From positions 59,432-79,431 of the forward strand of contig JALAIB010000001.1 of NCBI GenBank assembly GCA_023645945.1: 20,000 nt of DNA, written 5' to 3'. The position numbers and the translations under genes were made by a program. This stretch comes from Diploschistes diacapsis. Its lineage: Eukaryota. A model generated the notes under the pieces. That model did no database searches and was not told the origin of the DNA. It worked only from the letters and a program-made list of their open reading frames with translations. Of this stretch, positions 1 through 20,000 are shown piece by piece (positions within the stretch are counted from its first letter, which is position 1; each line of letters begins with the position of its first letter).

Positions 1-627
1 GCTATACCATTTAGCTTCATGCTGGGAGCAATTGTTCCTGCTATCATTGGCATGCTTCCGACTTGGATTCATCCATCTTCCAGGTCACCTAGGATGCATC
101 AGAATGTACTTGCGATGTGGCAAGCAGATCCGCTTTACGTTTCGATGATTCAACAGCTTTTTGCGGTGATGATGCACAAGTACGCTACAATAAATGCAAG
201 GACATCATATGTCTGGACTCAGGGATCTCTCCTACTCGCAGCAGCTTCGTCAACAATTGGGCATCTTTATGCAAAATTTTATATCCTAAAATCTGCTCAT
301 AGGACCGATCGCTTTGTACGAATGTACGTACCGTGGAGCTGGAATGGCAGTATGACCACACCAGATATTTTGGTCCACGGTCCTTGGTTGTTTCTGCAGT
401 TTGACCTAATCATCATTAATCTATCAAGTTTGTCATGGGCCTACCTCCTCTGCAAGCTTCATTGTTCTGTCGTCTCCACCCAACTCGTATTATTTTTCTC
501 CATTCTTTTGGGGACGCTGGTAGTTGGACCAGGCGCCACAGTGTCCTTAGCTTTATGCTGGAGGGAAGCGCAGCTGAACGAACTCCGAGCTTCAAAAACG
601 ACATCGGGCAAATACCATAACCAATGA
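1..627 (+). CDS. C-terminal part of a multi-pass membrane protein, CtvD/AurD-like (putative epoxide hydrolase/cyclase family); 5' end outside window
   Basis: Frame is open from base 1 (AIPFSFMLGAIVPAIIGMLP...) to TGA at 625-627. Hydrophobic helices and motifs (P..LG..P...MLP, W..P, FLQFD, VGPGA...W.E) are colinear with the gene at 10608-11894. Confidence 0.75.
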   Translation, partial: AIPFSFMLGAIVPAIIGMLPTWIHPSSRSPRMHQNVLAMWQADPLYVSMIQQLFAVMMHKYATINARTSYVWTQGSLLLAAASSTIGHLYAKFYILKSAHRTDRFVRMYVPWSWNGSMTTPDILVHGPWLFLQFDLIIINLSSLSWAYLLCKLHCSVVSTQLVLFFSILLGTLVVGPGATVSLALCWREAQLNELRASKTTSGKYHNQ

Positions 628-1515
628 TTTTCTAGCGAGAAGTTCAAGTGCTGTTCAGCAAATCAGATATAGGCTTTGTTGCAATGTTTTGGGACCCATG
701 GCGACGGCTATGATCTAAGCTCAATGTCTACTTGAGCGTCTGGCGATTCTGACGGCCGGAGTCTTTCTACATTGCTATTATCTAGCGCGAAACTCTCTGG
801 TCCCTGACAAGACAAGCGCGAATAGGGAACTCTGATTGGGCGCGACTTTTGTGACCTTGGTGTTTTCTCCTTGCGATCAGGTTATAAATTGATTATCCAA
901 CGGGTGAATTTAATTCTTCAGGATGGCGTGGAAAGGGCACGGCCTGGTACCTTCCGGTCCCCGATAGGTTGCCGTTTAGCGTTATGTATCCAATGCTGGA
1001 TGATACTTGATAATGTTGTGTTTTCCATCTCTGTTTCAAAGCTCAGTAATAAGCAGTTTTACGCTAATGCTTTGCTTCATCATAAAAAGTGCTGGCAAAA
1101 CCTTCGGCGGGCTTTGCCGAATAAAGGCTTGACCGGGCAGCATTGCAGCAGAACCAATCTATCTTTACTCCGTTTGAACTCTGCCGGCAGTCATTGTACC
1201 GTGCCGACTGATCTAAGAGAACGGAGTTTGTGGACCGAGCATGGGTCAGTCTAGAAAGCTGTGCACTTCGGTAGATTGAGCAACTATAGTTATCTGCGTG
1301 CACATGTAGCATGAGATGAGCCGGTATGGGGCGCCTCTTGCACGAAACTGACACGAGTTTAGCACCTAAGGAATTAGCTTCTTACACCATGAGGATCGAG
1401 TTTGATCTCGGCATGCTATTTGTCTTTGTCTAGCGCTGTGACTTCAATTAGAGACTGGCACATACCAGAGCTTCCTTTCTCTAGAGTACTCAACACTTAT
1501 CCTTCAGCTGTAAAG

Positions 1516-3430
1516 ATGAGCGGAAATAGCGAGAGGTACGATGTGACCATCATAGGGGCTGGTAAGTTCGTTATAGCAGAAAAATGCTTCTCCGCGGGTT
1601 TTCCATAATTAGAAGCTAGGCTGACTTGTATAGGATGGTATGGGCTAGTGGCTGCTAGAACCTATCTCAAGCTTCGTCCCGCTGTGAATCTTGTCGTCCT
1701 CGATTCCGATTCTACTGTAGGAGGAGTATGGAGCAAGAAACGTCTGTATCCAAACCTGATAGCCCAAGTCAAATTAGGGCTATTTAACTATACAGACATG
1801 GCAATGCCAGGAACCTCTCAGGACAATGAAGTCACTGGCGCCATGATACATGAGTATCTCAAGCGTTATGCGGAGGACCATGATATCATTAGACGTATCA
1901 GATTCAACACGTTTGTTGAGAGAGCGGCAAAGACCGACCAAGGCTGGAGACTGAGCCTTCGCGATCTTCAAAGTACGGTGTCTTTCATAGACACAGCAAA
2001 GTTGATGGTCTGCACCGGGGTCACCTCTATACCATCAATGCCGACGGTGAAGACACTTGAATCTTCGATTCCAATCATTCACTCTCGGGACCTTGGCGTC
2101 AAATTTCATGACCTCGGCCAAGACAAGGTACAAACAGTGGTTGTCGTTGGCGCTGCAAAATCTGCTTATGATGCTGTCTACTTGATATTGTCCATGGGCA
2201 AGCGAGTCATTTGGCTTATTCGACCAACAGGGGCCGGGCCCCTGGCCATCTTGCCCTCAAAACTGCTCGGCTTGAGTAGTATCGCTGTTGCATCTACTCG
2301 GCTAATGACATACCTTAGTCCTTCAATCTTGAATACCGAGGGTCTGCTTTATCGCTTTTTCCAAAGAACAGTAATCGGTCGCTGGTGTACAGGCAAGATT
2401 TGGGATGTTATAGCATATCTGAGCGACCTCCATGCTGGGTACTCGAAAGATGATCATGTTCGCCAGTTAAGGCCCGAAGTCGACCGTCAGAGGTTGGAAC
2501 ACTCTACGCTACCACTCAGTGTGAATGCTAATCGAGACAGCATCTTCTGGGCTAACTCTGGTCTTGGAGTGGTGACGCTTCCCGATTTTTGGTCGAAAAT
2601 TCATGCAGGCGATGTTCAAGTCATACGCGACTCGATCGAGCTAATAAAGCATGATTCCATCATCCTGGAATCCAGTGCTACATTCGCGGCTGATTACATT
2701 GTAATGTGTACAGGTTGGGGCGATCACTTTAGCATGTTTGATGCCGAAACCAAGGCCGAGTTAGGCATTCCCACTCTTGGAGAAAGGCATTCAAAAGACG
2801 AGCCGACTGTCGACGTGGAATGGGAGAAATATGACCTTGAAGCAGATCAGACCGTTAATGAGAAGCTCCCTTTCCTCGCCTCTCCGCCGCAGTGGACCGG
2901 TTGGCAAACGAATCACGATCAGGCGCGGAAGCGCTGGCGACTCTATCGGCGCACCATACCTCTTTCGCTAGCAGAAAAGGGGGACCGTTCCCTTGCAATC
3001 ATGGGCCAAATCCATACTATACAGACGCCTTTAGTCTCAGAAGTCCAATCCTTCTGGAGCATTCTTTACTTGCTGGGAGAACTCGATGTCCCCGACTCTG
3101 ACACCATGGCACAAGAAATTGCCGAATGGAATGCTTGGACACGAAAGCGCTACCTAAGCCAGGGACAAAAGTTTCCATACTCGCTCTACGATTTCTTGCC
3201 AGTAAGCATGCCCTAACCTCTGTAGTTCTCTCAAACCTAAGCTTCTGATGGTGAAAACAGAGCTGACTGGACGTTGCCAGTATGTGGAGACCTTGTGCAA
3301 AGATCTCGGCATTAATTCGCGGCGAAAGCGTAACATGATCACCGAGCTTTTCCAGCCATACAAGCCAGCCGATTTTGAGGGTTTCATCGATGAGTATCTA
3401 GCGCGAGACACGTCGGACCAAATGAAGTAG
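1516..3430 (+). CDS. Class B flavin-containing monooxygenase (FMO/BVMO-like); exons 1516-1561, 1634-2492, 2541-3201, 3281-3430
   Basis: Splicing GT-AG intron 1562-1633 restores the FAD motif IIGAGWYGL. Also present: GGVW, CTG, an HSRD fingerprint-like segment, second Rossmann VVVGAAKSAYD and MCTGW. Introns 2493-2540 and 3202-3280 have CTAAT/CTGAC branch sites. Confidence 0.92.
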
Positions 3431-3895
3431 GTGCTTCCAGTTTGAGCCTCAAACTTCCGTGGTCGAGCAGCGAGGAATGAAAATGCCCAATTAGACAGCG
3501 GCAGATGCTTCTTTTGAAAACAATGATTCAAAGAGGCGTGTCGGTGAGGATGGCAATGAATCGTGAATGTGGTCGTATGCAGTGTCCCCAATAGGCAGGC
3601 TGCGTGGGCGACCTGAAACTTATCCTGTATCTTGAGATACCACTGAGGGGCAGTAGTGGCATTTCATGATCCTTTGTGCAGTTAATGCTTGGCTCGCAGC
3701 CAGAATGGACCTCTGATCAAGCATTGTAAGGATGATTAAAGTTCGGCATCTGGGCCGGGGCTGCAGTGACTTTCTCTTGCTGAGTTTGAAACTATTTCTT
3801 CTCCGTGCGATCAGAGCGTATTAGCCAGGCCCTCTAAACTTTATACGGATTTCTGCTGCACCGAGACGTTGCTGAGTCTTTTTCCTTTCGGCACC

Positions 3896-5133
3896 ATGTA
3901 CAATGGCTCGAGAACGAAGAATCCCGGCGGAGCTCACTCTGCAAACGGGAACCAGTCTGGCACGCCCTTCAAACGCCCTACCACTGCTACCAGCGACAGC
4001 GGTGGCGGTGGAGGCAACGAGAACAGCAGTGGCCCCCGACATATAGCGTGTAGGACATGCCGGGACCGAAAAGTGCGCTGCGATGGTGGACAGCCAGCCT
4101 GCGAGAAATGCCGCCGAGCTGGTGAGACATGTGTCTATACTCTACGATCTCGAAAGACAAAGACAGATCTTCAGGAAAGCATAGAGATGCTTCAAGAACG
4201 ACTCGGTAAGTTCGTCTCTCATTATCCATCTTTCTATTGTCCTTGCCCGCTAACCCTTGGACAACGCGGGCAGAATCTGCCCTCGTAACGCGCAACACAG
4301 ACACCCAGAGTGGAAACTTTTGGCCTGCAACATCTTACTACTCTCTCGCTGATTCCATGCCTCCCAAGTCGGACCATCTTCAACGGCCATCCTCACCACC
4401 AGAACTGATGTCGGACTCTCAACTCGTGGGAAGTTCGCGGCTAGATCTTCCCAACTCAACCATGATCCCGTACGATTCTATGCCATTTGCTACGAATGCC
4501 TCAATTGACTCCAATCTCAATTATACGATACCTTCGGATGGTCCCGGGTTCGCGGGGATGGTGACCACCGCAAATGTCATGGATACTTCCTGTCCTCATG
4601 AGCAGCTCGCGTCTCCGTTTATCAAGGACAGGAGTCTTTGGCCAAGCGTGGAACAAAGAACTGATCGAGGCGCCACGGCGAAACCCCGGATACCCAGTCG
4701 ACAGGACGTGCAGAAATGGAATGCTGCGCAGCAAGACCAGCAGCAACCGCCGAGCACCATATTACCCACCCAAACACCTCAAACAGACACTTTTGCGCGC
4801 TTGTCTAGCCTCGCGTGTAGTATTGGGGCGATCAACGCCCATATTGCAGGTATTGCGCAGACACTTGCGGATTACTTGGCTTGGATCCGCAAAAAACCTG
4901 ACGAATGCAATGACGAAATTCTCAAGATATTTGAGGCGCGCGCTCAAGAAATTTCGGAGCTTGCGACTTCGCAGACGACCACAGCCCCATTTTCAGATAC
5001 GGCTGGGCTTGGGAGTCAGATCAGTCTCATCAAAGCCGAGATTGCAAGAATCAACCAAAGGAAAGCCGATTTTTTTCAGTCAGATTATAAAATTCAACGG
5101 AGCCTTGCTGAACAGTGCGAGCATCTGGAATAG
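3896..5133 (+). CDS. Zn(II)2Cys6 binuclear cluster transcription factor; exons 3896-4205, 4274-5133
   Basis: CRTCRDRKVRCDGGQPACEKCRRAGETC is a canonical Cys6 motif, followed by a coiled-coil-like linker. Intron 4206-4273 (GTAAGT...GCTAAC...CAG) joins the two ORFs in frame (ERL/ESAL). Confidence 0.9.
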
Positions 5134-6047
5134 AGTCGAAAACCGCGTGATTTAAAGGCATAGCTCTCTATACGTAATTTTGAAACCACAAATTCTAAAT
5201 GATGCTACTAAATCAATTGCTCGAGAGAGCAAATGGTCTTCCCTATCTGTGTCTCTGCTACAACCGTTCTGCTCGGGGTAATTATGGTAAGTCTTCATTT
5301 AGCGTTTCTTCCGGATGTTTTCTCAGGGCGATCATGTTAGGGGCCCTAGAATATCCATAGCCTATGAATAACTCTGGCACCGTTGGCCCCATTAGCCTCC
5401 TCGTCGGCACTTTTCTAGAGATCGTCAGCCCCGCGGAACTGGCATTGCCGGCCTTATCGTCTCGTTTTAACACGCAACGATTGACTGAAATCCGGAAGAA
5501 CGCCCCGGGATCGATGACCAGTGAGTGGTATTGATTTGGTAGCATTCGCAAGGCCTTTGGCCACGTCACTCCCCAAACCCACTCTAGCGGCACGGGACGC
5601 TGTAATCATGCAAGATTCTCAGCCTGACCGTGTTCAGCCTTGCTGACGGTTGACTAGACCCACGAGACGACGATCACTCTTCAAGTTGAGCCGCATGTAT
5701 CTCAAGACGTTGTCAAAGTACCGAGCTTCGGACCGGCGTCCGGCGTGGACGTTTCTACGAAGCGGGCTGGGGAATCGAGATCCGTGTTCGCTATGTTCAA
5801 CACTGGACAAGCCGAGATTGGCGGAGAATTCCCATTCTAGTTACTTAAATGCACGCGCGAATTGGACCGAACTGCGATGGCGGCATCTGGTCGAATATTG
5901 CCAGTAGATAAGAAATGCTACAGCTTGACGAGGGCTGGCTTGGCTCTAAATGCAGGAAAAAGGCTGATAGCTCAAGCGAGGTGGCCCAAACACGTTGCAT
6001 GTGTACTGTTGAGAATAACGTTCGCCACAATTACCGCCCCTCGTGCC

Positions 6048-6952
6048 ATGTCCTCACTAAGAGGTAAAGTCGTCGTCAGTAGGTGGCCCCATCCCTCTCT
6101 TCCAATCGTACCTATGCTATCGCATCTAAAGTTCCTATGCTTACCACAGGTCCAGTAACCGGCGCAGCCTCCGGCATCGGCCTTGCCCTATCCCACCTCC
6201 TGGCCTCTCACGGCGCCCTCCTCTCTTTGGCCGACATCAACGAAGCGCCCCTACAAGCCCTCACCACCGAGCTCCTCCGCAAGTACCCCTCCACCTCTGC
6301 TCTCCCCTCCAAAGCCCCAACCCCGATCCTCGCCACCGTCGTCGACGTCTGCTCTCCCTCCTCCGTCAGCGCCTGGATCTCCGCCACAACCGCGCACTTT
6401 GCACAGCCGCTCGCTGGCGCCGCCAACATGGCCGGCATAATCGGCAGCAGCGTCGCGCAGGACCGGGGCTCGCTGCGACACGTGGGCGACGGCGAATTCG
6501 CGCGCGTGCTGGCCGTCAACTGCGGCGGGACCTTCCACTGCCTGCGGGCGCAGCTACCGGCCATGGTGCGGGGTAGCGGCGGCCGCAATGGCGGCAGCAT
6601 CGTCAACGCCAGCAGCATGGCGGGCCTGGTGGGCGTGCCCAACAACGGGCCCTACGTCGCGGCCAAGCACGCCGTCGTGGGGCTGACGCGCACGGCGGCC
6701 AAGGAAGAGGGCGCGGCGGGGTCGGCGGTCAGAGTGAATGCTGTGGCGCCGGGCTTGATCCAGACGCCGATGATGGGGATGATCGAAGAGGCGGCGGGGA
6801 CGAAGGAGCTTTTTGGGCCGCAGGAACCAGGGGCGCTGGGGAGGAGGGGGGACCCGGAGGAGGTGGCTAGTTTGGTGGCGTTTTTGTTGGGGGAGGAGAG
6901 CTCTTTTGTGAATGGGCAGGTTATTGCTGTTGATGGGGCCATCTTATGTTAG
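6048..6952 (+). CDS. Classical short-chain dehydrogenase/reductase; exons 6048-6078, 6156-6952
   Basis: Splicing 6079-6155 gives MSSLRGKVVVITGAASGIG. NMAG, IVNASS, catalytic YVAAK, RVNAVAPG and VNGQVIAVDG motifs are present. Confidence 0.92.
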
Positions 6953-7385
6953 GATGAATGGCTATAATCTGTTTATTTTGTTAGTTGATGAGCAAAATAA
7001 TGAGAGCAGCTGGTAGCAACATGTGCTGTGTGTCTGTGCAGAGAAGTACAACTAGTAGAATAGCCCCTAGCGCGGCAAGAAATCACGGTTCGTGGTGATG
7101 GATTCACTACTAGCATTTATATAAACGTACAATTGGCCAAGATATATTAGCCATAGTTACGTAGTTCCAAATGCAAAGTATGTTTACTAACAAGGTTTGG
7201 GGCATACTGAGCTTTGCTTTAACAAATACAAGGACCGTATTAATCCAGGGGGAGAGACTCTGTGGTGCCAGTGGATGAGCGGCCAGGCACCAAAGTCGTA
7301 TTCCCCACGAGCTTAAAAATCGACCCCCCTACGGTGCCTCAGAAGAATGCCCATTTCAGTCATTTGCAGGAGAAAAATCTCTCTC

Positions 7386-9518
7386 TTATTTCCCCGTCAA
7401 TATCATATCCGCAATCTTCTCAGCAAACATGTAAACTGTACTCTGCGGCTGGCCCGGCGGCAAGATGGGAAACGCGCTGGCGTCGACGACGCGGAAGTTG
7501 GACACGCCTCGCACGCGCGCATGGCTGTCGACCACGGCCATTGTGTCGTTGGCGCGGCCCATTTTACCTAAAACAGTAGTTAAGAAAAAAAATATCAGCC
7601 TCGGCGGGACTGATTGAGAGAGGAGCGGGGATCGTGGGCAAGAAGTGAAGAAGGGTTCACGCCGAAAGAAAAGCACTTACAGGTCGAGGAAGCGTGGTAG
7701 ATCAAGTCCATGTTATTGCGCAGCCAGTCGAGAATCTCGTCGTACGAGCTCACGTTCGCGCCGGGCACGTATTCGCTCTCCACGATGCCGCTTGCGGCTG
7801 CGATCTCGCGGATGCGGCGCAGGGCTGCGACGGCTTGCTCGGCGTCCCCTTCGTCGAGGAGCCAGTTGGGCGAGATGAGGGGCGGATCCAAAGTGTCGGC
7901 GCTGGTTATTGTCATGTTGCCGCGCGAAGAGGTCGATAGCAGGGCAGAGCCGAGAAGAAGGTAATTGTCGGTAGATGAGACATTTGCGGGGATTGTGGCA
8001 TATGCCAGGGGGAGATATTCGGCTTCGGGCCAGTCGGAGGGAAAGGTATCGAGGAAAGCAAGGGTTGAGTTGGAGAAACTGCGGCGGAGGTGTGCGGGAT
8101 ATTTCTCAAATGCTGGAAGGAATTTGATTATTAGATCGCCAAAAAAACAAGGCAGAGGTAGAAATACCGGTAGCTTCGCCCCCGCCAATGGTTGAGAGAG
8201 GCCCGGACTGGTTATGGATATACTGAAACACGGCTTCATCGTTATAGGCGATATTTCCTGCCTCGATCTGCGTGCCAGTGGTGATATTGACTTTATACGA
8301 GAGGGCCATCCAGGGTTGGTCCTATCTACATTAGTGTTCTTGATAGCGTCGAATTATTTGGCCAAATTACTTACCCACTCATTCTGTCCAACCCCAGGTA
8401 GATCTGAAATCACGTCAATGTCGTATTGCTCCAAAGTACCTGCGGGCCCAACACCAGAGACCATAAGTATTTGAGGTGAGTGCCACTTGTTAATCTTAGC
8501 TGCTCTTCTTACATAAGGTCCTTTAGTTACTCACGGCGCCCGCAGATAATATAACTTCTTTATTGGCAGATAGCTGCCATGTGAAGTTGTGTAACGAATC
8601 AGCCTGCACTTCCACCCCTGTTGCTACCTTGTTCGTGTCGAAAGAGATTCGTTTAGCGAGAGTGTTGGGATATATCTTGATGCTCGAGTTCAAAGCAGCA
8701 CTCTGCAGAAACGAAGTCTCCGAAGAACTTCTAGTTGCTGTCCGAGGATCAACTGATACGGTGGCCGCCGTGTAGCCAATCAATGTACCACTGTTTATTC
8801 CTGCCAAGTGTGTGAACCCTAAGCTTTCAAGGCCCTGTGAGAGCGGTCCTCCATATGCGTACTGGAAATTTCCGTAGGACACTTGAAGTGGTCCGGCATT
8901 CGCGATGAACGCGCTAGGATCGTAAGATATGTTGAAGCTTGGGGTTATCTTCTCGTAGTTTGGCGGCGTGAAATTGCAACTTGCTTTGTAGAATGGATAG
9001 ACATTGTCCCATGTCCAGACGGAGTCACCCACCAGATCCGCCCAGTGGCCAAATGAACCTACTGTCGGCCGGAAATATCCCATATAATTGGCAGCCGACC
9101 CACCCCCAAAAGTTTGTCCAGCGACATAATCGATACGGCGGCCATTGTAGCCCGCTTGGGGAAGCGTAGTGAGGCCATCCCATTCGGTCATAGAAACTGG
9201 ATGTGAATCACTGGACAAGGCAGATTGATAGCTGTAGCCAGGTACTTGGGTACGGTTGCCATTCAAAATTTCGTAAAAGGATCCAGCTTCAATAACGGCG
9301 ATGGTGTAATTGGCCGGGTCCTCCGCCAAACGAGCTGCAATGGTGTTTCCCGCTGTTCCGCCTCCAATAACCACGTAATCGTATGTCAAGTTTAACCCTG
9401 GTACACCGAAGGAGTTACCATAGATATCGGTAATCCCGCCGTTGAGCGGAGCAAGGACATCGGAGAAAGCCTTGCGAAGCGAAACCAAACCAAAAGCAAA
9501 ACAAAGTCTGCAAAACAT
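7386..9518 (-). CDS. Secreted GMC oxidoreductase (PatE/versicolorin B synthase-like subfamily); exons 9518-8535, 8485-8375, 8321-8168, 8112-7681, 7567-7386
   Basis: Hydrophobic N-terminus, then [72 protein letters not shown] and PQSTVY. Four GT-AG introns keep the frame. Confidence 0.92.
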
Positions 9519-10381
9519 ACTGAGAGTACCGGGAAAGCACAGCGGCCGTACTACAATTTCTCAGCGCGAAAAAACATAGCAAATACGCCGACATATGCTG
9601 GACTAAGTACTCCAACCCATTCGCCCTCCGAAACATCATCTTCCAGCTTTCCGGGCACTGTGAGGAAGGCATTTTGCTTTGCCACAAGGCACGGATGGAA
9701 CATCATCATCAAAAATTTTCCAATGGCGGCTGAAGAGTTACTGGATCTCTCGGGTAAGCTCTTAAAGTGGGACTCTAATTCCGTTCTAGTTCGTTCAAGT
9801 TTCGCCTTAGCTAGAAGCACGAGCAGACAAACAGACACTTTTGATAGCGGAATCCAGACAGCTTTGTTTCAAAAGAAACAGCAAAGAGCCCAAGAACATG
9901 CTACCTTCATGAGCTCATCCATGAGCCATCTTACACGGCAAATAAGATACATGCGACAAAACAAAGAAATGGTAAGCCGCGATGTGACCTCAGGTATACT
10001 TCCTCTGTAGGATGGAGCGACCAGAGGCTAGGGTCCCTTCCGGGTATCAAAAGGTCTACCAGGTAGAGCGTGCAGAAAGCTGAGGCAAAGAGGCTGAGCT
10101 CTATTCTTGATCACCGATATAACGGGACACAGTATCATGGGAATGAATATTCAAGAGCGAGAATTAAAGCGGGTTGGGGGTTGCCTCACTCAGGTAGTTA
10201 ACGTTGTATCCAGAATCAGTACAGATCAGTACGTCTCCCCGTCGAGCCGTCTCGGCCGAATCGGTCAGTTCGGGCCGAACATAGCGAGCAGGATGACCTC
10301 GCAGTATCTGTATCTTCAGCAAGTACGTACTTACAAGAGTAAGTTTCAATGGAGGCACTAAGATAAAGACAACGAGATGGC

Positions 10382-10390
10382 TCGGACCGA
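10382..10390. promoter_or_regulatory. Candidate Zn2Cys6 binding site TCGG-A-CCGA in the divergent GMC / membrane-protein promoter
   Basis: Inverted CGG triplets spaced by 1 nt. Related YGGRCCGA sites occur at 1231, 5863, 10271 and 15506. Confidence 0.35.
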
Positions 10391-10607
10391 GTATTCCAAA
10401 CAGAACGGAAGCCTTTGAAGTCTGCAACTTTGACAAGCATCATACCGCTAACCTCCAACGGTTGAACAGGTAGCTGCTTCCTTTTCGAATGAGCCTCAAA
10501 ACACCCAGCAATTTGAAATTGATAATGGCGCCTGGATACCTGCCTATGGATTCATATGATACACCGTTCTCGTATCGCGAAGATCTCGTTCAGCTCTTAG
10601 ATTTCTT

Positions 10608-11894
10608 ATGGCAGAAATAACAGTTAGCAGAGCACGATGGATTCTATATATCTTTGCTTTCCTCGGACTGTCCAATACCTGGGGTCGCGCCGCCATAGAT
10701 GGTACTCTTACCCTTTTGTTCAGAGCCTTGCACAGCTCAGAGCCATGTAACCTACCAGGAACGAATAGTCTCCCAAGAACAACCATTAGGGGCATTCGCT
10801 GGCCCCTCGACTACCTTCTCAATGTCTTGGTCCTTTTCTTTTGGCAAGCGGTCAATGGCTCCCATCCGACCACCTCGGTCATTGGCATATACTTTCTCGG
10901 CCAATACTTTGGTGTGCTCACGAGCTTCTACGTCAACAGCTGGCGCTTAGCGAATTCTCGACGATGGAGTATAGCGTACGTGGGTTTAACTCCTATGCTT
11001 GTCGATGGGCGCTGATGCTCTCCTAAAAGTCCTTTGCCCTGGCTGCTAGTTTTCCAGCTGATGGGGGCTGCCGTTGCTGGCCCTTGGTACGCCCTCGTGT
11101 ATCTTACCAGCTCGCCTATTTTCTCGAAGCAAGAGATCCGACAGAAGTCTTCCGGCTTTCTGGTCTCTCCAATTTCGACTTTGTTCCTGCCAATTTCACT
11201 GTTCGCAGGCTATGTTCTACCGGCAGTACTTATGGCTTTACCATCGCCGTCAGTCGTAACAAATGACTTTCAGCAAATGGCTGTTGTTGCATGGAATCTC
11301 TTTCCCATGATTTTGACCATCGTGCAAGCCATTTTGAGCACGTCGGGTGCAATGCTGGGTTTTGTTCGAGGAGCATCTCATCCTTCTCCAGAACAACACA
11401 TTAGAGGAACACGGATGGCTTATGTGTGCAGTCTGATTGTTACCTTGTGGACACATATTGCTATCATTTCTCTCAGTGTAACGACAGCCTTATTTCCGTT
11501 CTTGTTTCGTAGCGAATACGTTCTGGCGCTTAGCCCAAAGTCGCTCGCGCTCCCATCGATATCAGCGGCTCCCGTTGCGAGTCTAGGGGAAGGAGTACGA
11601 ACTTTCTTTCTATGGGATCAAGTCTTCACCTACTCAACAATGCTTCTTCTGCTCTATGTGCAATTTGTACAAGTCAAACCTCTGGTTATAGAAAAGCTCG
11701 GATCTACTAGGCTCTTCGTGTTTCTGATAGGGTCTGTTGTGTTGTTAGGGCCAGGCAGTACTTGTGTAATGCTGAGCTGGGCCGTGGATGAGACGTGGTT
11801 TTTGCAAAGTCTGGCACCAACATTGCAGGCGGTAAAGTCAGATCGTGAGCAGAAGAAAGACTCCAGTTTGTGTACGCAGACCCGGAAATTCTAG
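10608..11894 (+). CDS. CtvD/AurD-like integral membrane protein (~410 aa); exons 10608-10975, 11030-11894
   Basis: Intron 10976-11029 (GTACGT...GCTGAT...AAG) joins the two ORFs. Motifs LPGT...GI..LD..L..LV.FFW..V.G.HP, SWR..N, LPISLFAGYVLPA, FFLWDQ and LLGPG match my recollection of the citreoviridin CtvD/aurovertin AurD family. Confidence 0.75.
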
Positions 11895-12505
11895 GCGGCC
11901 CGACTACTACAGCTTACCTATTCATATACTATGAAACTGGAATCGACCTTGAATTTGCGATCTTAGCATATTAGCTCAATGCTTCCATACATGTTGCTAT
12001 ATAGCCAGATAATCTCACCAATTTTCTGTTGCACGTCGGCTCAGTCGACTGAAGGTTATATATCGCCGTTCACCAGAAGCTAGTACTTCGGACATTCCAG
12101 AACGTAAATGCTGCTCTATTCCAGACACACGGACTGCGCGTCGACTTAGCGCAGAACGTGAATACCGTCGGTAAAGAAGTGGAATGAAGGCTCGGTCATC
12201 CAAGCCGCGAGACGCCGTGACTACGATGTCCGAAAGCTTCGGTAGTCCCTCCGACGCCGATGCATGCTTGAACTCCAGTCGCTGAGTATTCAGTGAGAAG
12301 AGGCATGTCCTCTTGTGTATCTACGCAGCGTTTATAAAAGTGGTGCGACCAGGAGTCGCGTGTTAATTGGGGCGCCGATTTTCAAGATCTTGTATCAATT
12401 AGAGTTCAAATCCTGCTCGCGGATCTATGCGATTTTTCTAGAATAAGCCTGTTTTCGTCCTGCCTAGAAACCCAACATTTGAATTCCTCCTACGCTTGTG
12501 TAACA

Positions 12506-13512
12506 ATGGAGTATCTTCAGAAGCAGCCCGGCTTCCCAACACTACAGCCATGCTGTACATGGCAGATGCACGTAGGAGAGATGAGCCCGCTGGGCACGTA
12601 TTCATCTTCCCACAAATCTAAGTCAAAAAGACTGACCCAAGCCATCAGGCGTGATCCACAGCGGCGCCAATCTGAACCACTTCGTACGCGATCTGTCACT
12701 ACACCTTACACCCAACAACTTTTATCCTCCTCAAAGCTTGTTCGGCGAGACCAATCAGCTCAAAATCTATTGCTATTCTTTGGACGTGGGAACTAATCTC
12801 TGTGCCGTATAGACGACGCCGACGGGCTCGATTGCGAGCGTCCCGGGCTTTGAGCCGGCCTTCAAAGCCGACATCACGTTCGGAGCGGACTGGCTGCGCT
12901 TCGATCCGAGCGACGAGTTCGGGAGGATCGAGTTTCGAGGGATTGCGAAGTACGCATAGCTCCTGCCTGTCTTGCGAACTCTCGGAGAGCCTTTGCTTGT
13001 CAACCCTTCCTTTTTGCTCTTTTTCTTTCTTTTATCTCAATAACCCACGCCTTATTTGTGGCTCATCAGTTCCCTTACTCTGAGCTTTTCTAACGGTGAT
13101 GAACAACAAACAGGCCAACAGAAGGAGAGCATCCCATCGATTTCCGCTACCAAGGCATCATAACCATGACGCCGGACGTGAAGAAGATCTTCACCTTTCA
13201 GGAAGACAGGAAAACCGTGCCGTTTGGCTTCTCGAGTACGTCATCTACTCCAACTTTTCCAGCCACCGGCTATCCTGGGACTTTGGACTCTCACTCTGAA
13301 AGCTATCTCACTAATGGTTCCCACTTCCAGCTGGCTCGAACAGTTTCATAGTCGCCGATCCAAAGCTCAAGGTGCTTGAGAACAGCACTTTCTGCAGTAA
13401 TGGACGCATCATTTGTCATAAGGGCGGGTTGACGGTCGAAGTAAGGGTGTCGAAAGTGGTGCCAGCCACGGAGATGGATGTGCCGGCTGGATATAAGGAG
13501 ATTAATCAGTAA
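12506..13512 (+). CDS. DUF3237 (UPF0311) family protein, ~187 aa; exons 12506-12593, 12649-12683, 12813-12949, 13114-13235, 13331-13512
   Basis: Hand-spliced product: MEYLQKQPGFPTLQPCCTWQMHVGEMSPLG-VIHSGANLNHF-TTPTGSIASVPGFEPAFKADITFGADWLRFDPSDEFGRIEFRGIAK-PTEGEHPIDFRYQGIITMTPDVKKIFTFQEDRKTVPFGFS-TGSNSFIVADPKLKVLENSTFCSNGRII...VEVRVSKVV...*. Total is 564 nt in frame, and all introns have branch sites. The first donor is GC (GCACGT). Confidence 0.8.
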
Positions 13513-13709
13513 AGATGATGGGCACAGGATCAGCGAGAGAATGAATGAGGGCCCAAAATGAATAACGAAGTTCTTTTCAAGCGCCACGTATCTCGATGCC
13601 CAGATTTCTTAGCTTTTACTCGTATTGCTATGCATTGCTAGCCAGGCCCTCCAGATTTAAGTTAATCACACCAACTTTTGCTTTCTGGTCGCTTGTATAG
13701 AATTCAATT

Positions 13710-15472
13710 CTAAGCATTGGGCATGCCCATGCCAAAAAGCCGCCCACGTTTCATAGCAAGCGACAACAGAACCGTCAACCCACCAGCCGCGACGACGACC
13801 ACAAGATAACTAGCATCGATAACAGCCACGATTACTTGTAGAACCGCCTGCCGTGTTCTAGCATCAAGCGAACTGAACAGTGCACCATTCATCCCAGAGA
13901 CGGCCTGCTGTATCGTCGAGCGCGACGCATTCGGTAGCAAAACTGAAATCCGATTTGTAGCCGAATTGAAGAAAGTGGCATTTGCAATACACAGTGTCAG
14001 GACGATTCCGACCATCTGCGCGCACATGATGGAGGACACAGCATGCGGGACGCTTTCCCTTGGTACCTTTGCCTGCGCGATGAATAGGCTGTCTGGTTGT
14101 AGAGGCCACCGCCCAGAGCCAGTAGAATGCTAAAGCTGTATGTTCGAGCTGGTGCATTCTCCAGCGAGATGGTGTACATGAGAGCGCCTCCGAGGATGGT
14201 AAGGACTCCGCCAACAAAGTGCATCGGCGTGTAGAGGCCTGTTCGGGAGAGGAGATGCCCGCTCGAGAGGATTGCCGCGATAAAGAAGCCGACGAACGGC
14301 AGAAGCTAGACACCGGCTTGCAGGGTGGTAGTATCATGAGCGAATTGAAAATACAGCGGTATAAAATATATAGGTACGAAGTTTGGCGTGTTAGCTGCCG
14401 CTGTAGTCGCAAACGGGATGCACATTTCTCACCTCATCACGAAAGTCAGGGAATATCTGACGCTCGCGGCTTGTCAAAATTGGCAGGCTCTGCTGAACCG
14501 TAAATGTTATACAAAGTATACCACCGCAAATGAAAAGTCCAACGATCTGGCCGCTATTCCAATCATATAGAGCTTCACCGAAAGATATTGCCATCGTAGT
14601 GGACATTATCATACCCAGGAAAAGAACGGCACCAAGCCAGTCCATATGAGCGAGACACTGGCGATGCGTTAAATCTGGACGTGGGCGACTTGGAGGAAGC
14701 AGGAAGATCCATGCAGGTGCCGCGAGTGCTCCTACGCATAAGTTGATGTAGAAACTCCAACGCCAGGTCGCGCTCGGATTGACGAATGCTCCACCAACAA
14801 TGGAGCCCAAACTAAGAATGTCAGCCAAGTTCCACTAGTAGGATCATCTCTATCTTACACGGTACCCAACCCCCATAGCAGAGACATGTAACCGAGAATC
14901 TTGGGTCGCTCTTGCGGAGTTGTAAAGATGGAAAGAATATTAATAGCATCAATATAGACACCCATCGCTCCTATTCCGCATATCGCACGTCCAATGATCA
15001 ATATGTCCATACTGGTCGCAGCGCCGCACAGCGCCGGTCCGGCCTCGAAGATAACGGCCGAAGCGATAAAAAGGATCTTGACATTGTACAACCCGAAAAA
15101 TTTCCCCCTGGACCAAGTAAGAACTAAATTCCTAGACACACTACATCAAAATTACTCACCATAAGAGGCAAGTACCCGTAGCTGCAGCGGCAAAGGCCGC
15201 GGATATCCATGGGAGTTTGTTAATCTGGCTGAGGTCCTTGACTGAAGCGGGCTGAATATCCGCCACGATGGTAGTGTCGAGCGAGAAGGCAAGCAGAAAC
15301 AAAGCGAGGCCCCTAATCTGGCGTGGCTCCTAATCTGGCGTGGCTCTTCCGTTAAAGAGTGCGATTGGTTTCCCAAAGGTTGTTGCGATGGATCGGGATC
15401 CAGAACAACCTTCTCTTCTGCAGCCGCATCTTGGTTTAACTGACGGTTGATCTTCTCCAATTATGCTGCCAT
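13710..15472 (-). pseudogene. Disrupted 14-TMS MFS efflux transporter (DHA2/TCR-Tet type)
   Basis: Recognisable segments: LDTTIVADIQP, LPW, FEAGPALCGAA..M..LIIGRAICGIG, ATWRWSFYINL, DWLG and IYFIPLYFQF. Lesions: TAA at codon 4 (15461-15463), 17-bp duplication at 15312-15345, frameshifts near ~14440 and ~14080, and in-frame stops at 14429-14431 and 14306-14308. Confidence 0.88.
15312..15345. repeat. Perfect 17-bp tandem duplication inside the MFS pseudogene
   Basis: CCTAATCTGGCGTGGCT x2. Confidence 0.95.
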
Positions 15473-15880
15473 TGTATCACAGGGTAGGGACAAGCTCGGT
15501 GATTTTGGGCCGAGCCTTGTCGAAATGTAAAGGATGCTGTAGGACCTCTTCGTCGAGCCTGACCAATGACGTAGATCTCAACCCTGTGGGTAACTGCGCT
15601 GCAACAGATGGTGAATAGCTTTACTCGGTGAAAAATGATGGAAATAGCTTAACAGCGACACGGAAGGCAGGGTATATCTATCGACACGTGAGCCTTGGAT
15701 GATCATACCATTACCTACTTATTCCTGTGTAGAGCACATTGAACTGAATCTAACATAGTCTGCAAGGACAGGCTCCCAGCTCGTCGATTTGTCTCTTACT
15801 CCGCACTTTACTACTACTCGTACCTATCAATTAGTTAGGCAATACAAATTCGGCATAAATCCCGCCTTTCAATTACCAAT

Positions 15881-17060
15881 ATGCCGCGCTCCTACGACAC
15901 TAATACCACTGCTGATGTACTTGTGAAGGAATATGCCAGTGTCATCAAGGGCAAAGTCATCCTCACCACAGGCGTGTCGCCCGGAGGTCTTGGTGCCTTC
16001 TTCGTGGAGAATATCGCAGTTGCTGATCCAAAGCTCCTTATTCTCGCCAGTCTAACACCACTAAGAACAAGGCTACAGCGGACGCCATATCGAAGATCAA
16101 CCCAAAGGTGCAGACACGCACCTTGCAACTCGATCTTGAGTCTCTGAGGGGGGTCAAAGAGGCCGCTGCCACTGTCAGTGGCTGGGACGATGTACCGCAA
16201 ATCGATGTGCTCGTGAATAACGCCGGTATCATGGCCTGCGAGTATGCCAAAACCGAAGACGCTCTCGAGCGTCAGTTCGCAACAAGCCACGTGGGTCCCT
16301 TCCTCTTCACGAATCTCATCATGAAGAAGCTCTTGGCGTCGAGTGCGCCCCGTATCGTCAATGTCTCCAGCGACGGCCATAGGCTTTCCTGGTTACGCTG
16401 GCCGGATATTGGGTTCTCAGTAAGTGCTATCTGCCCCCGTCAGACCATGACTCGGTTTTAATGAGCGTTTTACTAAGGCTTTGATAGGATGGTAAACTCT
16501 ACAACAAATGGAGAGCGTACGGTCAGGGCAAGACAGCGAATATACTCTTCACCACAAGTCTAGCCAAGAAACTTGGACCCAAGGGTTTGGTATCTGTATC
16601 TCTGCATCCAGGAGTGATCGGCACCCACCTCGGTGATCATTTGGATTGGAACGTGGAGTTTGCAGGTCTGCGTAAGTCGAAAGATTGGCATCAAACTCCA
16701 GTGATAGCTCGATACTGATGATGACATGGCGTGCAGAGGGTGTGGACAAAGAACTTGGAAACAAGGAAGGTTTCTCGGCAGGCTTTGATTTCAAGACGCC
16801 GGAACGCGGAGTGGCGACGCATGTCTATGCTGCATTCGAACCAAGTCTAAAAGGTCAATCTGCTCACCTCCTTCATCTTTTCCTGCCGCTTAGCCAGGCA
16901 TTTTAACATTCTTTTAGACCACAACGGATCATATCTGCAAGACTCGCACATTGCAGATCCATACGTAGACACCATCAAGCCATATGCTCAGGATGCGGTC
17001 GAAGCAAACCGCCTCTGGTCGTTGAGCGAAGAAATTGTTGGACAGAAATTTGAGTACTAG
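15881..17060 (+). pseudogene. Retinol-dehydrogenase/WWOX-type SDR with a single frameshift (~16052); introns 16420-16487, 16672-16736, 16854-16917
   Basis: TTGVSPGGLG, QLDLESL, IDVLVNNAGIMA, RIVNVSS, AYGQGKTAN, SLHPGVI and ANRLWSLSEEIVG are all present. GCC AGT CT AAC sits where an AGRN-like sequence is expected, i.e. one base short. Confidence 0.8.
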
Positions 17061-17309
17061 GTCATTGTCTCGGACACTGGGTCCAAGGACTAGAGCGGAG
17101 CGCAGAACGGAAGGAGTGTAGGCTTGCAACGCTATACCAGACACAAACCCTCTAGCGAACAATAGCTTTGTGCCCAATATTCCCTTGCCCATCGATATTC
17201 TAGAGACGTGAATCTAGCATAGCAATATAACGGAGACAATTGATTTGGGAATAAACTCGGGGACACATTCGGCTTAATACAATACATGTCTATACCGGTC
17301 TGCCCCTTC

Positions 17310-17571
17310 ACCTCCATCAAACGCAGTTACTTCTCGTTCGCGTTCAATCAACGAGCCGGATTGAACTGCTCCACGTCCTCGCTGTAGACGCTCTAGTTCG
17401 CGTGCATGACCCATGAGTTGATGCCCACGATGATCCCAGCGGGAATGCGTATCGTTGATGGTCATGCCGCCTTCGTGCACGCGCTGCTCCAGTACAAAGC
17501 TGGTCGCTGCGTGCGCACCGCATCGCCTCCATGATGACAGTGTCGAGGTACTTGAGCTTGGATTCATGCAT
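17310..17571 (-). pseudogene. Cytochrome P450 relic (K-helix to meander region)
   Basis: Across two frameshifts it reads KLKYLDTVIMEAMR / HAATSFVLEQRVHEGGMTIND / RIPAGIIVGINSWVMHAN*SVYSEDVEQFNPAR*LNANEK*LRLME. This includes ExxR and an FxPxRW-like motif, with three stops. No heme-binding Cys motif is seen. Confidence 0.8.
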
Positions 17572-17778
17572 TGAGCGTAATATAGGCAGACGAAGCAGTG
17601 AAGCTATTTGACGGGATCTCTGAAGGCTAAGAGCGACATCCTATATAGTTAGTGAGCTATATTGAAGATCGAACAAATTAAAAGACTTGTGGGGGGGCGG
17701 AGATACCTTTATAGACAATCCCAAGTAAATATAGGGTTGGATTTCTGGGTACAAATGGGTAGAGTGTTGTCCCTAGTA

Positions 17779-18317
17779 GAGAGGTTCAGCAACCCTGCAA
17801 TGCGCTCGCTGCGTAAGTCCAGATCTAGCTAGCGCTTTTTTAGGGGCCTTGGCAAGAGACTAGTCCAAATTAAATAATATATTAAAATGCAATGCTTCTA
17901 ATAATTTCATCTCTTATAAATATAATCAAAAAGGCCTAAAATATGGCTATTTCACGTTTAAAAAATAAAGAATAAAGGGGAGTAAAAAAAATACGGAAAT
18001 AGTAATAAACGCTACGATATTTAATATTAACGTTTATTATTATCTAAATCGCAAAATTGAGGGTTTAGAAGCGTAAGGGTAGGTATTATTGTTTATTTTT
18101 TACGTTATAGATGCGTCGGTGGAAAGCCGTAAGGTTATTCTCGATGTTTATTTATATTAGGATTTACGTAGCGTAGACGACGTCTGCGGTTTTATAGACG
18201 GACGCTGTTTATACTTTCGGAGATACTTCTTAAATAGATAAGCAGCGCTCGGCGCCGAGATACGAGCTAACTATAATAAGACTTACGCGGTGCATTTACA
18301 GGGTTGCTGAACCTCTC
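17779..18317. mobile_element. MITE-like non-autonomous DNA transposon (539 bp)
   Basis: Perfect 19-bp terminal inverted repeats GAGAGGTTCAGCAACCCTG (17779-17797) / CAGGGTTGCTGAACCTCTC (18299-18317), extending imperfectly to ~40 bp. TA flanks both sides, and there is no coding capacity. Confidence 0.8.
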
Positions 18318-18322
18318 TAGTA

Positions 18323-18423
18323 GAGAGGTTTAGCAACCCTGTCAATACGCTCGCTGCGTAAGTCCAGATATAGCTAGCGCTTTTTTTAGGGCGTTGGCAA
18401 TAGACTAGTCCAAATTAAATAAT
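18323..18423. mobile_element. Truncated second copy (left ~100 bp) of the same element
   Basis: Near-identical direct repeat of 17779-17878, starting 5 bp after the right TIR. Confidence 0.85.
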
Positions 18424-18589
18424 TCCTAAGCAAAGCACAGGACTTATTCCTAAGCGAAGCGCTAACATCATCACTTTCGCATTCCTGGGGCAGGACGGAG
18501 ATGGGTTGGTGGAGCGGAGATAGTTTATCCGCGAAACACCCTTGCAGGACGGAGATGCAAAATACTTTCTACTCCGACCTGGTCGAGTT

Positions 18590-20000
18590 TTCCAATATTT
18601 GAATTTTTTTTAATTTATTATTTTTTTTCGATTTATTCTCCTTAAAATGACGTCAAAATATTTGAAATAACTAAAGATTTAAGCAATCTATAAACTAGCC
18701 CTAATAAGATTTAAAATTGGTGAGGAAAGTGCCAAGCCTCATCCAAAAACCTTAATATTACACTTATTTTAATTCTTTAAGATCTATGTGCATCAGGTCA
18801 ATTATTTTTTTCGTTATATATAACGCTGGAATACATAATAACCTATTTTCAAAAATAAAAAAAGTCAAAAATTGTTCGAGATATTAAAGAAAAGGCTTTT
18901 TTCCTCATACAAATTTTTAACGAAAAAAAAGATTTTATGAATTAAAATATATTAAAAATATAATAAGATAGATCTAAAGTTAGAGATTATATTACATTTT
19001 TCTAAATTTAAAATAAATAAAAACTGCTCGAGTTATTAAAATAAAACTTATTTAGAACTATAGTTGATTTAGACTAAACCCTGGTTTAATATGAATTTAT
19101 AATTTGAAGTTAGATGCATCTAGATTATACCCTTTTTTTAATTATAACTTATAATTTAAAATTAGATGCATCTAGACTAGACCCTTTTTTAATTAAAACT
19201 CATAATTAAAATCTGATATATGCAAACTATATTACGATCCAAATAACTAGGTAATAATTATTTAATACTCTATAGCTAATCGGGCATTTCTTAATCATTT
19301 TCTATATATAATTTAATCATGATAATATTGGTTACGTAATAAATAAAAAGTTTTAAATATTATTTTATGTTTTTATAAATAAAACGGAGAACGGTAATTC
19401 TCTTTATTTATTAATTTATTCTGTTAAAAAACAGTTAATTATATAAGAACGTCGTTATAATTCTTAGTAATTTTAACTAGTTCACTTTTCTAAATATTTT
19501 TATTTATTATTCGAAATCAATAAATATTCGTTATCCTTTATTAATCCCTAATAATCTTTTTAAAAATTAGTATAGATTTATAATTAATTTATTTCTTCTT
19601 TTATCAAATTTCTTTTTTAATATAAATAAAATTATCTTCATTTCTACCTCGTGTCTATATTATAAAGATAAAGATTATAATATTTAAAATTTTTAAGAAT
19701 AAATATTATTAATAATATAATAAGGAAATCGGTTATTAAGATTCGATTAAGACCCATTTTAATAAAAACAATCATAATAAAAATTAACGTCGGGCCCGAT
19801 AAAGGATTTAATAAAAAACCGAAAAAACTATATCGAAAATAACGATAAAAGAAAAGATAAAACTTTTAATTTAAATTTAAAATTACATAATTAAAAAAAT
19901 ATTACGTAAATCGTAAAAAACTAGAACTTAGTTCGTTTAAAATACCCGTATTATAAAAATAAAAAATATAAGCTAACCGTTTCGTGCTACGGTTACTAAC
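18590..20000. repeat. AT-rich, probably RIP-degraded repeat/transposon block
   Basis: Very low GC, abundant TpA, visibly scarce CpA/TpG with residual CpG, and no ORF of 60 aa or more in the track. Confidence 0.7.
19070..19215. repeat. Degenerate tandem repeat, period ~51-52 bp, ~2.8 copies
   Basis: TAGA(C/T)TA.ACCC starts at 19070, 19121 and 19173; TTATAATTT.AA.TTAGATGCATCTAGA occurs twice. Confidence 0.75.

Follow-up and report, generated by a model that had tools for sequence, protein, structure and literature searches.

The 20,000-nucleotide stretch from contig JALAIB010000001.1 of Diploschistes diacapsis (the window) carries a run of tailoring genes, among them two membrane proteins, here called g1 and g6, and a flavin-containing monooxygenase (FMO). 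On balance, the window is probably the tailoring side of a Pezizomycotina polyketide-type gene cluster of the depudecin and aurovertin/citreoviridin kind. The evidence that carries this reading is the membership of g1 and g6 in one superfamily, the conserved carboxylates, which by residue number lie close to those known from an epoxide-opening cyclase, and the recurrence of the g1-type and FMO genes as neighbours in other fungi.

From left to right, the window contains g1, the FMO gene, the gene of a Zn2Cys6 transcription factor, a short-chain dehydrogenase/reductase (SDR) gene, a glucose-methanol-choline (GMC) oxidase gene, g6 and a DUF3237 gene. This order was derived from the reading of open reading frames (ORFs), from Pfam matches and from exon-intron models built from coordinates. 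Since all elements were found in order by these means, the gene run proposed in the initial annotation is confirmed, with every named element present, the order as stated and no housekeeping gene in between. The features of this part of the window are:

1 to 627, forward strand: g1, membrane protein, cut at its 5' end; 208 amino acids visible; no Pfam family.
1516 to 3430, forward strand: FMO, class B-type; exons 1516-1561, 1634-2492, 2541-3201 and 3281-3430; 571 amino acids; no internal stop.
3896 to 5133, forward strand: short Zn2Cys6 factor; exons 3896-4205 and 4274-5133; 389 amino acids.
About 6048 to 6952, forward strand: classical SDR; main exon 6150-6952, open; short first exon uncertain.
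9518 to 7386, reverse strand: GMC oxidase, PatE-like; exons 9518-8535, 8485-8375, 8321-8168, 8112-7681 and 7567-7386; 620 amino acids; no internal stop.
10608 to 11894, forward strand: g6, second membrane protein; exons 10608-10975 and 11030-11894; 410 amino acids.
12559 to 13512, forward strand: DUF3237 gene; secure exons 12813-12949, 13114-13235 and 13331-13512; 5' part ambiguous.

Six of these genes, spread over about 12 kb, show a clean exon-intron structure without internal stops (those for the proteins of 571, 389, 620 and 410 amino acids, the SDR gene and the visible part of g1). The introns of the window genes are short, follow the GT-AG rule and have CTRAY-like branch sites, and the relatives of the encoded proteins belong to the Ascomycota throughout among the matches listed. 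None of the 11 intergenic ORFs of 86-204 amino acids had a Pfam match at E ≤ 0.05, a tRNA search of the window found none and an Rfam search returned no family. A polyketide synthase (PKS) domain was found nowhere in the 20 kb, the left flank of which is cut at base 1. Two of the modelled introns have an AAG acceptor instead of the usual YAG, namely 10976-11029 in g6 (54 nt) and 8534-8486 in the GMC gene (49 nt). Both are needed for the frame and fit the relatives, P0248 and P0002 in the case of g6 and the PatE alignment in the case of the GMC oxidase.

The visible part of g1 is the C-terminal 208 amino acids of a protein that should be about 360-370 amino acids long, whereas g6 is present at full length; full-length relatives of the two measure 359-427 amino acids. 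At a strict threshold, five hydrophobic segments were predicted in g6 and two in the g1 fragment. A Pfam scan assigned no family to either protein, and in the ESM Atlas g6 matched 'hypothetical protein' clusters from Ascomycota alone. The two proteins align over their whole shared length with common motifs, and when 22 sequences from both types were aligned, 21 columns showed at least 90% conservation. By this alignment, g1 and g6 are paralogues. A profile built from both types and searched in a library of representative clusters at 50% identity retrieved 2134 of them at E ≤ 1e-3, and stricter limits left 1336 (E ≤ 1e-10) and 313 (E ≤ 1e-30); the named matches are all fungal among those listed. 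Judging from the profile, both proteins belong to one large superfamily without a Pfam model.

Within this superfamily the two proteins have different closest relatives. In local BLAST comparisons against the proteins returned by the searches, g1 was 42-57% identical to members of its own group (g1-type) and g6 28-55% identical to members of its group (g6-type). g1 shares 46% identity (E 1e-43) with the membrane part of P0051 and 47.9% with P0174, which its source names 'Depudecin biosynthesis cluster protein 1'. Over its full length, g6 is 35-45% identical to proteins of Penicillium, Aspergillus, Usnea and Flavoplaca, among them P0173 (39.8%), which carries the UniRef name 'Aflatrem synthesis protein A'. 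Going by what the sources call their relatives, g1 would be a DEP1-type (depudecin) and g6 an AtmA/PaxA-type protein; the labels DEP1, DEP4 and AtmA are names that the sources gave to proteins of other species, in the case of DEP1 and DEP4 by automatic annotation, and do not constitute a test. A g1-type membrane protein of Aspergillus lentulus (P0185) is named 'levodione reductase' by its source; the name may have been carried over by mistake from an adjacent SDR gene, which would hint that an SDR adjoins the module there too.

The literature treats membrane proteins of this sort as epoxide-opening enzymes. AscI is described as a membrane protein with eight helices and no Pfam motif that shares 27% identity with CtvD and 29% with AurD; its activity requires D61, E103, D296, E353 and D355, and D61, D296 and E353 are kept in AurD and CtvD (PMC6486709). 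PaxA and its orthologues open an epoxide and so close the tetrahydropyran ring of paspaline; the report on them likens them to the AscI-type cyclases and describes D279, the equivalent of the AscI aspartate, as required (PMC12038925). In the aurovertin, citreoviridin and asteltoxin pathways, an FMO epoxidises a polyene to bisepoxides, from which a membrane-bound hydrolase then makes tetrahydrofuran rings (PMC12312803). With AscI reported in 2019 (PMC6486709) and PaxA in 2025 (PMC12038925), membrane-bound epoxide-opening cyclases are, going by these reports, recent as enzymes.

Alignment of the g1-type proteins revealed four conserved acids in all ten sequences, at D60-62, E102-104, D290-303 and E345-358. 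These positions agree with the AscI numbers to within a few residues, an equivalence drawn from the quoted residue numbers alone. The g1 fragment keeps the last two of them, an aspartate at fragment residue 135 and a glutamate at residue 189; the first two lie left of base 1. Going by these features, g1 and g6 would belong to the superfamily of AscI, AurD, CtvD and PaxA, whose members are regarded in the literature as cyclases or hydrolases that are bound to membranes and open epoxides. The initial annotation had called both proteins CtvD-like, which holds at the level of the superfamily and of the likely mechanism and goes too far as a statement of membership, the names of the relatives pointing to the DEP1 type for one and the AtmA/PaxA type for the other. 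A published link between DEP1 and the AurD/AscI family was not found in the literature searched, which was that outside subscription journals.

The product of the FMO gene scored 47.8 bits with PF00743 (FMO-like; cut-off 22) and 35.9 bits with PF13738 (Pyr_redox_3; cut-off 30). Glycine-rich dinucleotide-binding motifs lie near residues 14-19 and 198-203 of the model, and the best solved relatives of the protein are FMOs, matched weakly (E 2.5e-6). These matches and motifs bear out the initial call of a class B FMO; by homology the protein is of the class B type and probably an epoxidase. The search returned 289 homologues at E ≤ 1e-10, and the 119 listed besides the window's own protein are 46-69% identical to it. 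The best relatives among the matches listed come from lichen-forming Teloschistales and from Lepidopterella, and P0034, which its source names 'FAD-dependent monooxygenase DEP4', is 60% identical. The FMO intron 2493-2540 is 48 nt long, in frame and without a stop; two close relatives, P0012 and P0013, have an insert here, which looks like read-through of the intron in ORF-style predictions.

On one and the same strand, 889 bases separate the end of g1 from the FMO start codon downstream of it, and this arrangement recurs widely. All counts of synteny and co-occurrence given here are lower bounds, taken from 120 rows each of the FMO and the membrane-protein matches. Six FMO relatives were examined more closely, five of the long ones listed (869-890 amino acids) together with P0034. 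Four of the proteins, P0016, P0020, P0039 and P0051, are fused gene models in which a g1-type protein lies directly upstream of the FMO. In P0028, also a fused FMO model, a C-terminal extension matched the C-terminal part of the window's Zn2Cys6 factor with 32% identity over 159 amino acids (E 9e-11). Furthermore, the locus tags of FMO and g1-type genes are consecutive in Calogaya cf. arnoldii, Caloplaca aetnensis, Gyalolechia fulgens and Penicillium verhagenii, as well as in Hypoxylon texense (at two loci) and Parahypoxylon ruwenzoriense. In Aspergillus oleicola the JGI protein ids of such a pair are consecutive, and many more pairs share a contig among the matches listed. By this comparison, the g1-type protein, the FMO and the factor are a widespread syntenic module across the Ascomycota. 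The factor itself was identified by its DNA-binding exon (Zn_clus, E 5e-11); its second exon matched no Pfam family, and no fungal-specific middle-homology domain was detected in the factor.

The two types of membrane protein also occur together elsewhere. In Penicillium vulpinum, Diplocarpon rosae and Diplodia intermedia, the locus tags of a g6-type and a g1-type gene differ by 2-4; the loci concerned lie around N7479_005172-005176, QTJ16_005900-005903 and SLS58_007990-007992, respectively. Genes of both types share a contig in Hypoxylon sp. FL1857, Hypoxylon sp. FL0543 and Colletotrichum caudatum (a contig of 80 kb), and a further contig of 22 kb also carries the two. Altogether, both types co-occur in at least seven other sources. 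Conserved co-localisation in other fungi, which the initial annotation had proposed as a check, was thus found for g1, FMO and factor and for the g1-type/g6-type pair. The same annotation had not recognised the combination of genes from any described cluster; its core recurs in other fungi, in the syntenic module as well as in the pairing of the membrane proteins, and is therefore not a peculiarity of this genome.

Downstream of the module, the SDR (6048-6952) matched adh_short_C2 with an E-value of 3e-48, and its best solved relative is the levodione reductase 1iy8 (E 3.5e-33). The main exon of its gene has a GC content of 0.67 and a GC content at third codon positions (GC3) of 0.82, compared with a GC of 0.48-0.56 in the exons of FMO, factor and g6. 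The DUF3237 exon 12813-12949 has the same GC3 of 0.82. Codon bias, a different origin or gene conversion could account for the high GC3 of these exons.

The GMC oxidase matched both domains of its family, GMC_oxred_N (PF00732) and GMC_oxred_C (PF05199). Its N-terminal exon aligns with the patulin synthase 8bxl at E 2e-57 (residues 32-328 to 39-328), with 1e-28 for the next best GMC protein, and its C-terminal domain aligns with residues 416-568 of 8bxl at E 5.6e-25, with 1e-7 for the next best. Patulin synthase is thus by far the best solved relative over both domains, in agreement with the earlier description of the enzyme as PatE-type. About 31 N-terminal residues precede the 8bxl match and open with a hydrophobic stretch, which looks like a putative signal peptide.

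For the DUF3237 gene, which the initial annotation had listed in the run, the family is present in three exons and the integrity of the gene is uncertain. The exons matched PF11578 at profile positions 31-71, 75-110 and 115-149 of 149 with 19.2-19.4, 16.6 and 12.7 bits, so that no single exon reaches the cut-off of 24. Pfam and ESM Atlas searches upstream did not recover profile positions 1-30; an in-frame TAG at 12810-12812 occupies the place expected for them, unless an intron is spliced out there. One candidate intron alone, 12684-12812 (129 nt, GT...AG, with a usable branch site), could remove this TAG. If it is spliced, the small exons 12559-12571 and 12649-12683 complete the gene, giving it a short N-terminus from two tiny exons. 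This intron is favoured because the GC content of the segment is 0.45, like that of the next intron, compared with 0.60 and 0.64 in its flanks, and because the next exon has the high GC3 given above. The 53 amino acids upstream of the TAG had no Pfam match and no usable ESM Atlas match, and a read-through search of the PDB with this segment yielded chance-level matches to picornavirus capsids only (E ~0.9). From these comparisons, an intronic TAG and a nonsense codon appear roughly equally likely, with a slight lean to the intron. A plain pseudogene had been considered for the DUF3237 gene; that view was softened in the light of the one canonical GT...AG candidate and its intron-like composition.

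From the observed gene content, gene integrity, family placement and conserved synteny we infer the chemistry, substrate and product of the pathway. The product of a reducing PKS would carry double bonds that are epoxidised by the class B-type FMO. g1 (DEP1-type) and g6 (AtmA/PaxA-type) would bind the epoxides, protonate and open them via the conserved carboxylates, and steer either a regioselective ring closure to tetrahydrofuran or tetrahydropyran rings or a hydrolysis. The SDR and the PatE-like GMC oxidase would then adjust the oxidation states of alcohols and carbonyls; the GMC oxidase, probably located in the secretory path, could trigger the closure of a hemiacetal or lactol, as PatE does. 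The DUF3237 protein, if intact, might contribute a further cyclisation, and the short Zn2Cys6 factor would regulate the gene set. The initial annotation had suggested a metabolite rich in oxygen heterocycles. The family calls and the two paralogues in a putatively epoxide-opening superfamily support this suggestion; it is weakened where it drew on a CtvD-likeness that applies at superfamily level, on a DUF3237 gene that is uncertain and on a combination that is not unique.

In a bolder version of this proposal, the DEP1-type and the IdtA/PaxA-type cyclase act in turn, together with one FMO, on one reducing-PKS chain, each opening a different epoxide and so building a polyketide with at least two oxygen rings. 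We hold this version to be rather improbable as it stands. As to the position of the core synthase, a published table of Cladonia rangiferina genes (ORFs 06819-06824) gives the order reducing PKS, DUF3237 protein of 184 amino acids, DUF2306 protein, protein of 236 amino acids, domainless protein of 356 amino acids and FMO-like protein of 565 amino acids (PMC8262933). If the 356-residue protein is g1-type, this order by analogy favours a PKS on the g1 side, which is to the left of the window.

The right flank of the window is of a different nature and contains the following features:

About 13710 to 15472, reverse strand: pseudogene of a major facilitator superfamily (MFS) transporter (TRI12/DHA-type); MFS_1 and TRI12 matches with in-frame stops.
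About 15881 to 17000, forward strand: second SDR, probable pseudogene; adh_short match with frame changes.
17090 to 17760, reverse strand: cytochrome P450 remnant; C-terminal third alone recognisable, stops inside the p450 match.
18001 to 20000, no strand: AT-rich block resembling the product of repeat-induced point mutation (RIP), by GC content and dinucleotide indices.

In the MFS gene the MFS_1 and TRI12 matches are split over two frames, in-frame stops occur at 15463-15461, 14431-14429 and 14308-14306, and the frame changes twice without GT-AG intron signals. The gene is dead, as the initial annotation had stated for this exporter. The second SDR differs in type from the first. Its adh_short match occupies one frame (profile positions 37-139 of 195), with other parts in the other two frames; the frame changes a first time inside the Rossmann region and a second time close to the C-terminal third. 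One clear intron was recognised together with at least one frame change without an intron signal, and the gene is probably a pseudogene. In the P450 remnant, the p450 profile positions 356-393 were matched across in-frame stops at 17395-17393 and 17350-17348. The reading frames of 17760-18300 contain no recognisable gene.

Within the block 18001-20000, the GC content falls from 0.34 to 0.20, with a TpA/ApT index of 1.13-1.14 and (CpA+TpG)/(ApC+GpT) values of 0.80 and 0.47. In the 18 scanning intervals to the left of 18001, the corresponding values are 0.55-0.94 and 1.07-1.49. RIP was considered as the cause of the pseudogenes at 13.7-17.8 kb and found no support; heavy RIP does not explain them because the indices are normal over 1-18000. 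The decay that had been described for the right side is therefore real and extends further than the exporter, to the second SDR, the P450 remnant and the RIP-like block.

Several observations weigh against the view of the window as the tailoring side of a polyketide-type cluster. The window holds no core synthase, so that membership in a polyketide cluster is deduced from the neighbours in other genomes and from source names. The links to characterised enzymes run via the source names of relatives, via papers and via residue numbering, and involve no direct sequence comparison. Depudecin itself retains its epoxides, and a DEP1-type protein need not form rings. Conserved adjacency was shown for g1, FMO and factor only. 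In g6, three of the four conserved acids are kept, and an Asn stands at the position equivalent to E103 of AscI, where other g6-type proteins have Asp; a Gln and an Asn occupy two further acidic positions kept in all nine other g6-type proteins aligned. These substitutions, in exon 1 of g6 (10608-10975), could mean altered or lost catalysis. Since the first two of the three are shared with the closest relative P0248, which lies on another contig, they may instead be traits of the subfamily; the third is absent from P0248. Finally, there are three neighbouring pseudogenes, and the TAG directly upstream of the DUF3237 exon 12813-12949, in frame with it, is a possible nonsense codon, so the pathway may be defunct here. 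With an eroded transporter, second SDR and P450 beside a RIP-like block, this copy may no longer make the original end product.

Taken to its end, this line of thought leads to the most credible of the alternatives, a minority view in our estimation: the locus is a decaying relic that has lost its transporter, P450, SDR and perhaps the DUF3237 gene and yields no product, and its intact-looking genes are either not yet mutated or put to other use. The pseudogenes of MFS transporter, second SDR and P450, the TAG at 12810-12812 in the DUF3237 reading frame, the RIP-like block at 18001-20000 and, in g6, the Asn at the E103-equivalent position and at a second conserved Asp all fit such a relic. It is harder to reconcile with six genes over about 12 kb that retain clean exon-intron structures without internal stops, and with RIP indices that are normal across 1-18000. 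Moreover, two of the three g6 substitutions are common to P0248, and the TAG can be removed with a 129-nt segment of intron-like composition.

The adjacency restricted to g1, FMO and factor, together with the sharp G+C contrast between the SDR (GC3 0.82) and the FMO exons (GC ~0.5), would also fit two unrelated units that came to lie side by side, the module on the one hand and the SDR/GMC/g6/DUF3237 group on the other, each serving a separate pathway. We consider this unlikely. In the Cladonia rangiferina table a DUF3237 gene lies four genes from the FMO (PMC8262933). Penicillium vulpinum, Diplocarpon rosae and Diplodia intermedia have a g6-type gene no more than a few genes away from a g1-type gene, both types share short contigs, that of Colletotrichum caudatum (80 kb) and one of 22 kb, and no housekeeping gene separates the two groups in the window. 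A catabolic or detoxifying island, whose FMO, membrane epoxide hydrolase, dehydrogenases and exporter would deal with a lipid or xenobiotic from outside, would suit the lack of a core synthase in view and the fact that the FMO, SDR, GMC and MFS families are also found in catabolic loci, yet it is very improbable given relatives named after biosynthetic clusters (DEP1, DEP4, AtmA), a membrane superfamily whose characterised members are biosynthetic cyclases or hydrolases, a biosynthetic patulin synthase as the closest solved relative of the GMC oxidase and a pathway-type Zn2Cys6 factor embedded in the locus.

For the polyketide-type tailoring cluster that we favour, no published description was found in a literature search that covered mostly work outside subscription journals and did not extend to MIBiG. 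The 2134 representative clusters of the membrane superfamily are almost all annotated as hypothetical proteins. New ring-forming chemistry may reasonably be sought at a locus of this sort, which combines two subfamilies of the superfamily with a single FMO and is found again in other fungi; such a locus could also give the DEP1-type proteins a role. If the two-cyclase version is true, it would describe an uncharacterised and widespread family of fungal pathways for polyether-like compounds. Given the truncation and partial erosion of the present copy, experiments would better start from a related locus in a fungus that can be cultured.

Among known systems, the depudecin cluster of Alternaria brassicicola comprises DEP1-DEP6, including the reducing PKS DEP5. 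The window resembles it in having a DEP1-type membrane protein beside a DEP2/DEP4-type FMO, a Zn2Cys6 factor and an MFS gene, a likeness by the names of relatives (P0174, P0034). It differs in lacking a reducing PKS, in having one FMO only and in its dead transporter, and it adds a membrane protein of a second subfamily, a PatE-like GMC oxidase, SDRs, a DUF3237 gene and a P450 remnant. PhnH, a DUF3237 protein of herqueinone biosynthesis, reportedly catalyses an intramolecular hydroalkoxylation. The window gene belongs to the same Pfam family (PF11578) and is likened to PhnH by family alone; its matches are sub-threshold per exon, the first 30 profile positions were not found and a nonsense codon is possible. 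The GMC oxidase, in turn, has PatE (8bxl) as its best solved relative over both domains, with a similar length (620 compared with 628 amino acids) and an N-terminal extension. Its substrate must differ from that of PatE, because no other gene of the patulin pathway is present in the window.

The pairs AurC/AurD, CtvC/CtvD and AstC/AstD follow the same logic, in that the FMO gene adjoins that of a multi-pass membrane protein to which no Pfam domain is assigned (PMC12312803, PMC6486709). Unlike the aurovertin, citreoviridin and asteltoxin clusters, the window has neither a methyltransferase nor a pyrone-forming PKS, and it encodes two paralogous membrane proteins instead of one. With AscI and PaxA/IdtA, the proteins of the window types share a length of about 360-410 amino acids, a helical membrane character and the lack of a Pfam family; going by residue numbers, the carboxylates of the g1-type proteins would correspond to those of AscI. 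The superfamily has an invariant Asp that would match the role of D279 in PaxA, and a relative of g6 is named after AtmA. In contrast, AscI and PaxA act on meroterpenoid and indole-diterpene epoxides that come from other epoxidases, whereas the context in the window is an FMO and polyketide-like, and g6 differs from AscI by the Asn at the E103-equivalent position. Taken together, the window looks like a known kind of system, in which an FMO epoxidase and a membrane-bound epoxide-opening protein work in a fungal polyketide cluster, and in which the window would additionally have another cyclase paralogue, an oxidase of the PatE-like sort and a DUF3237 gene.

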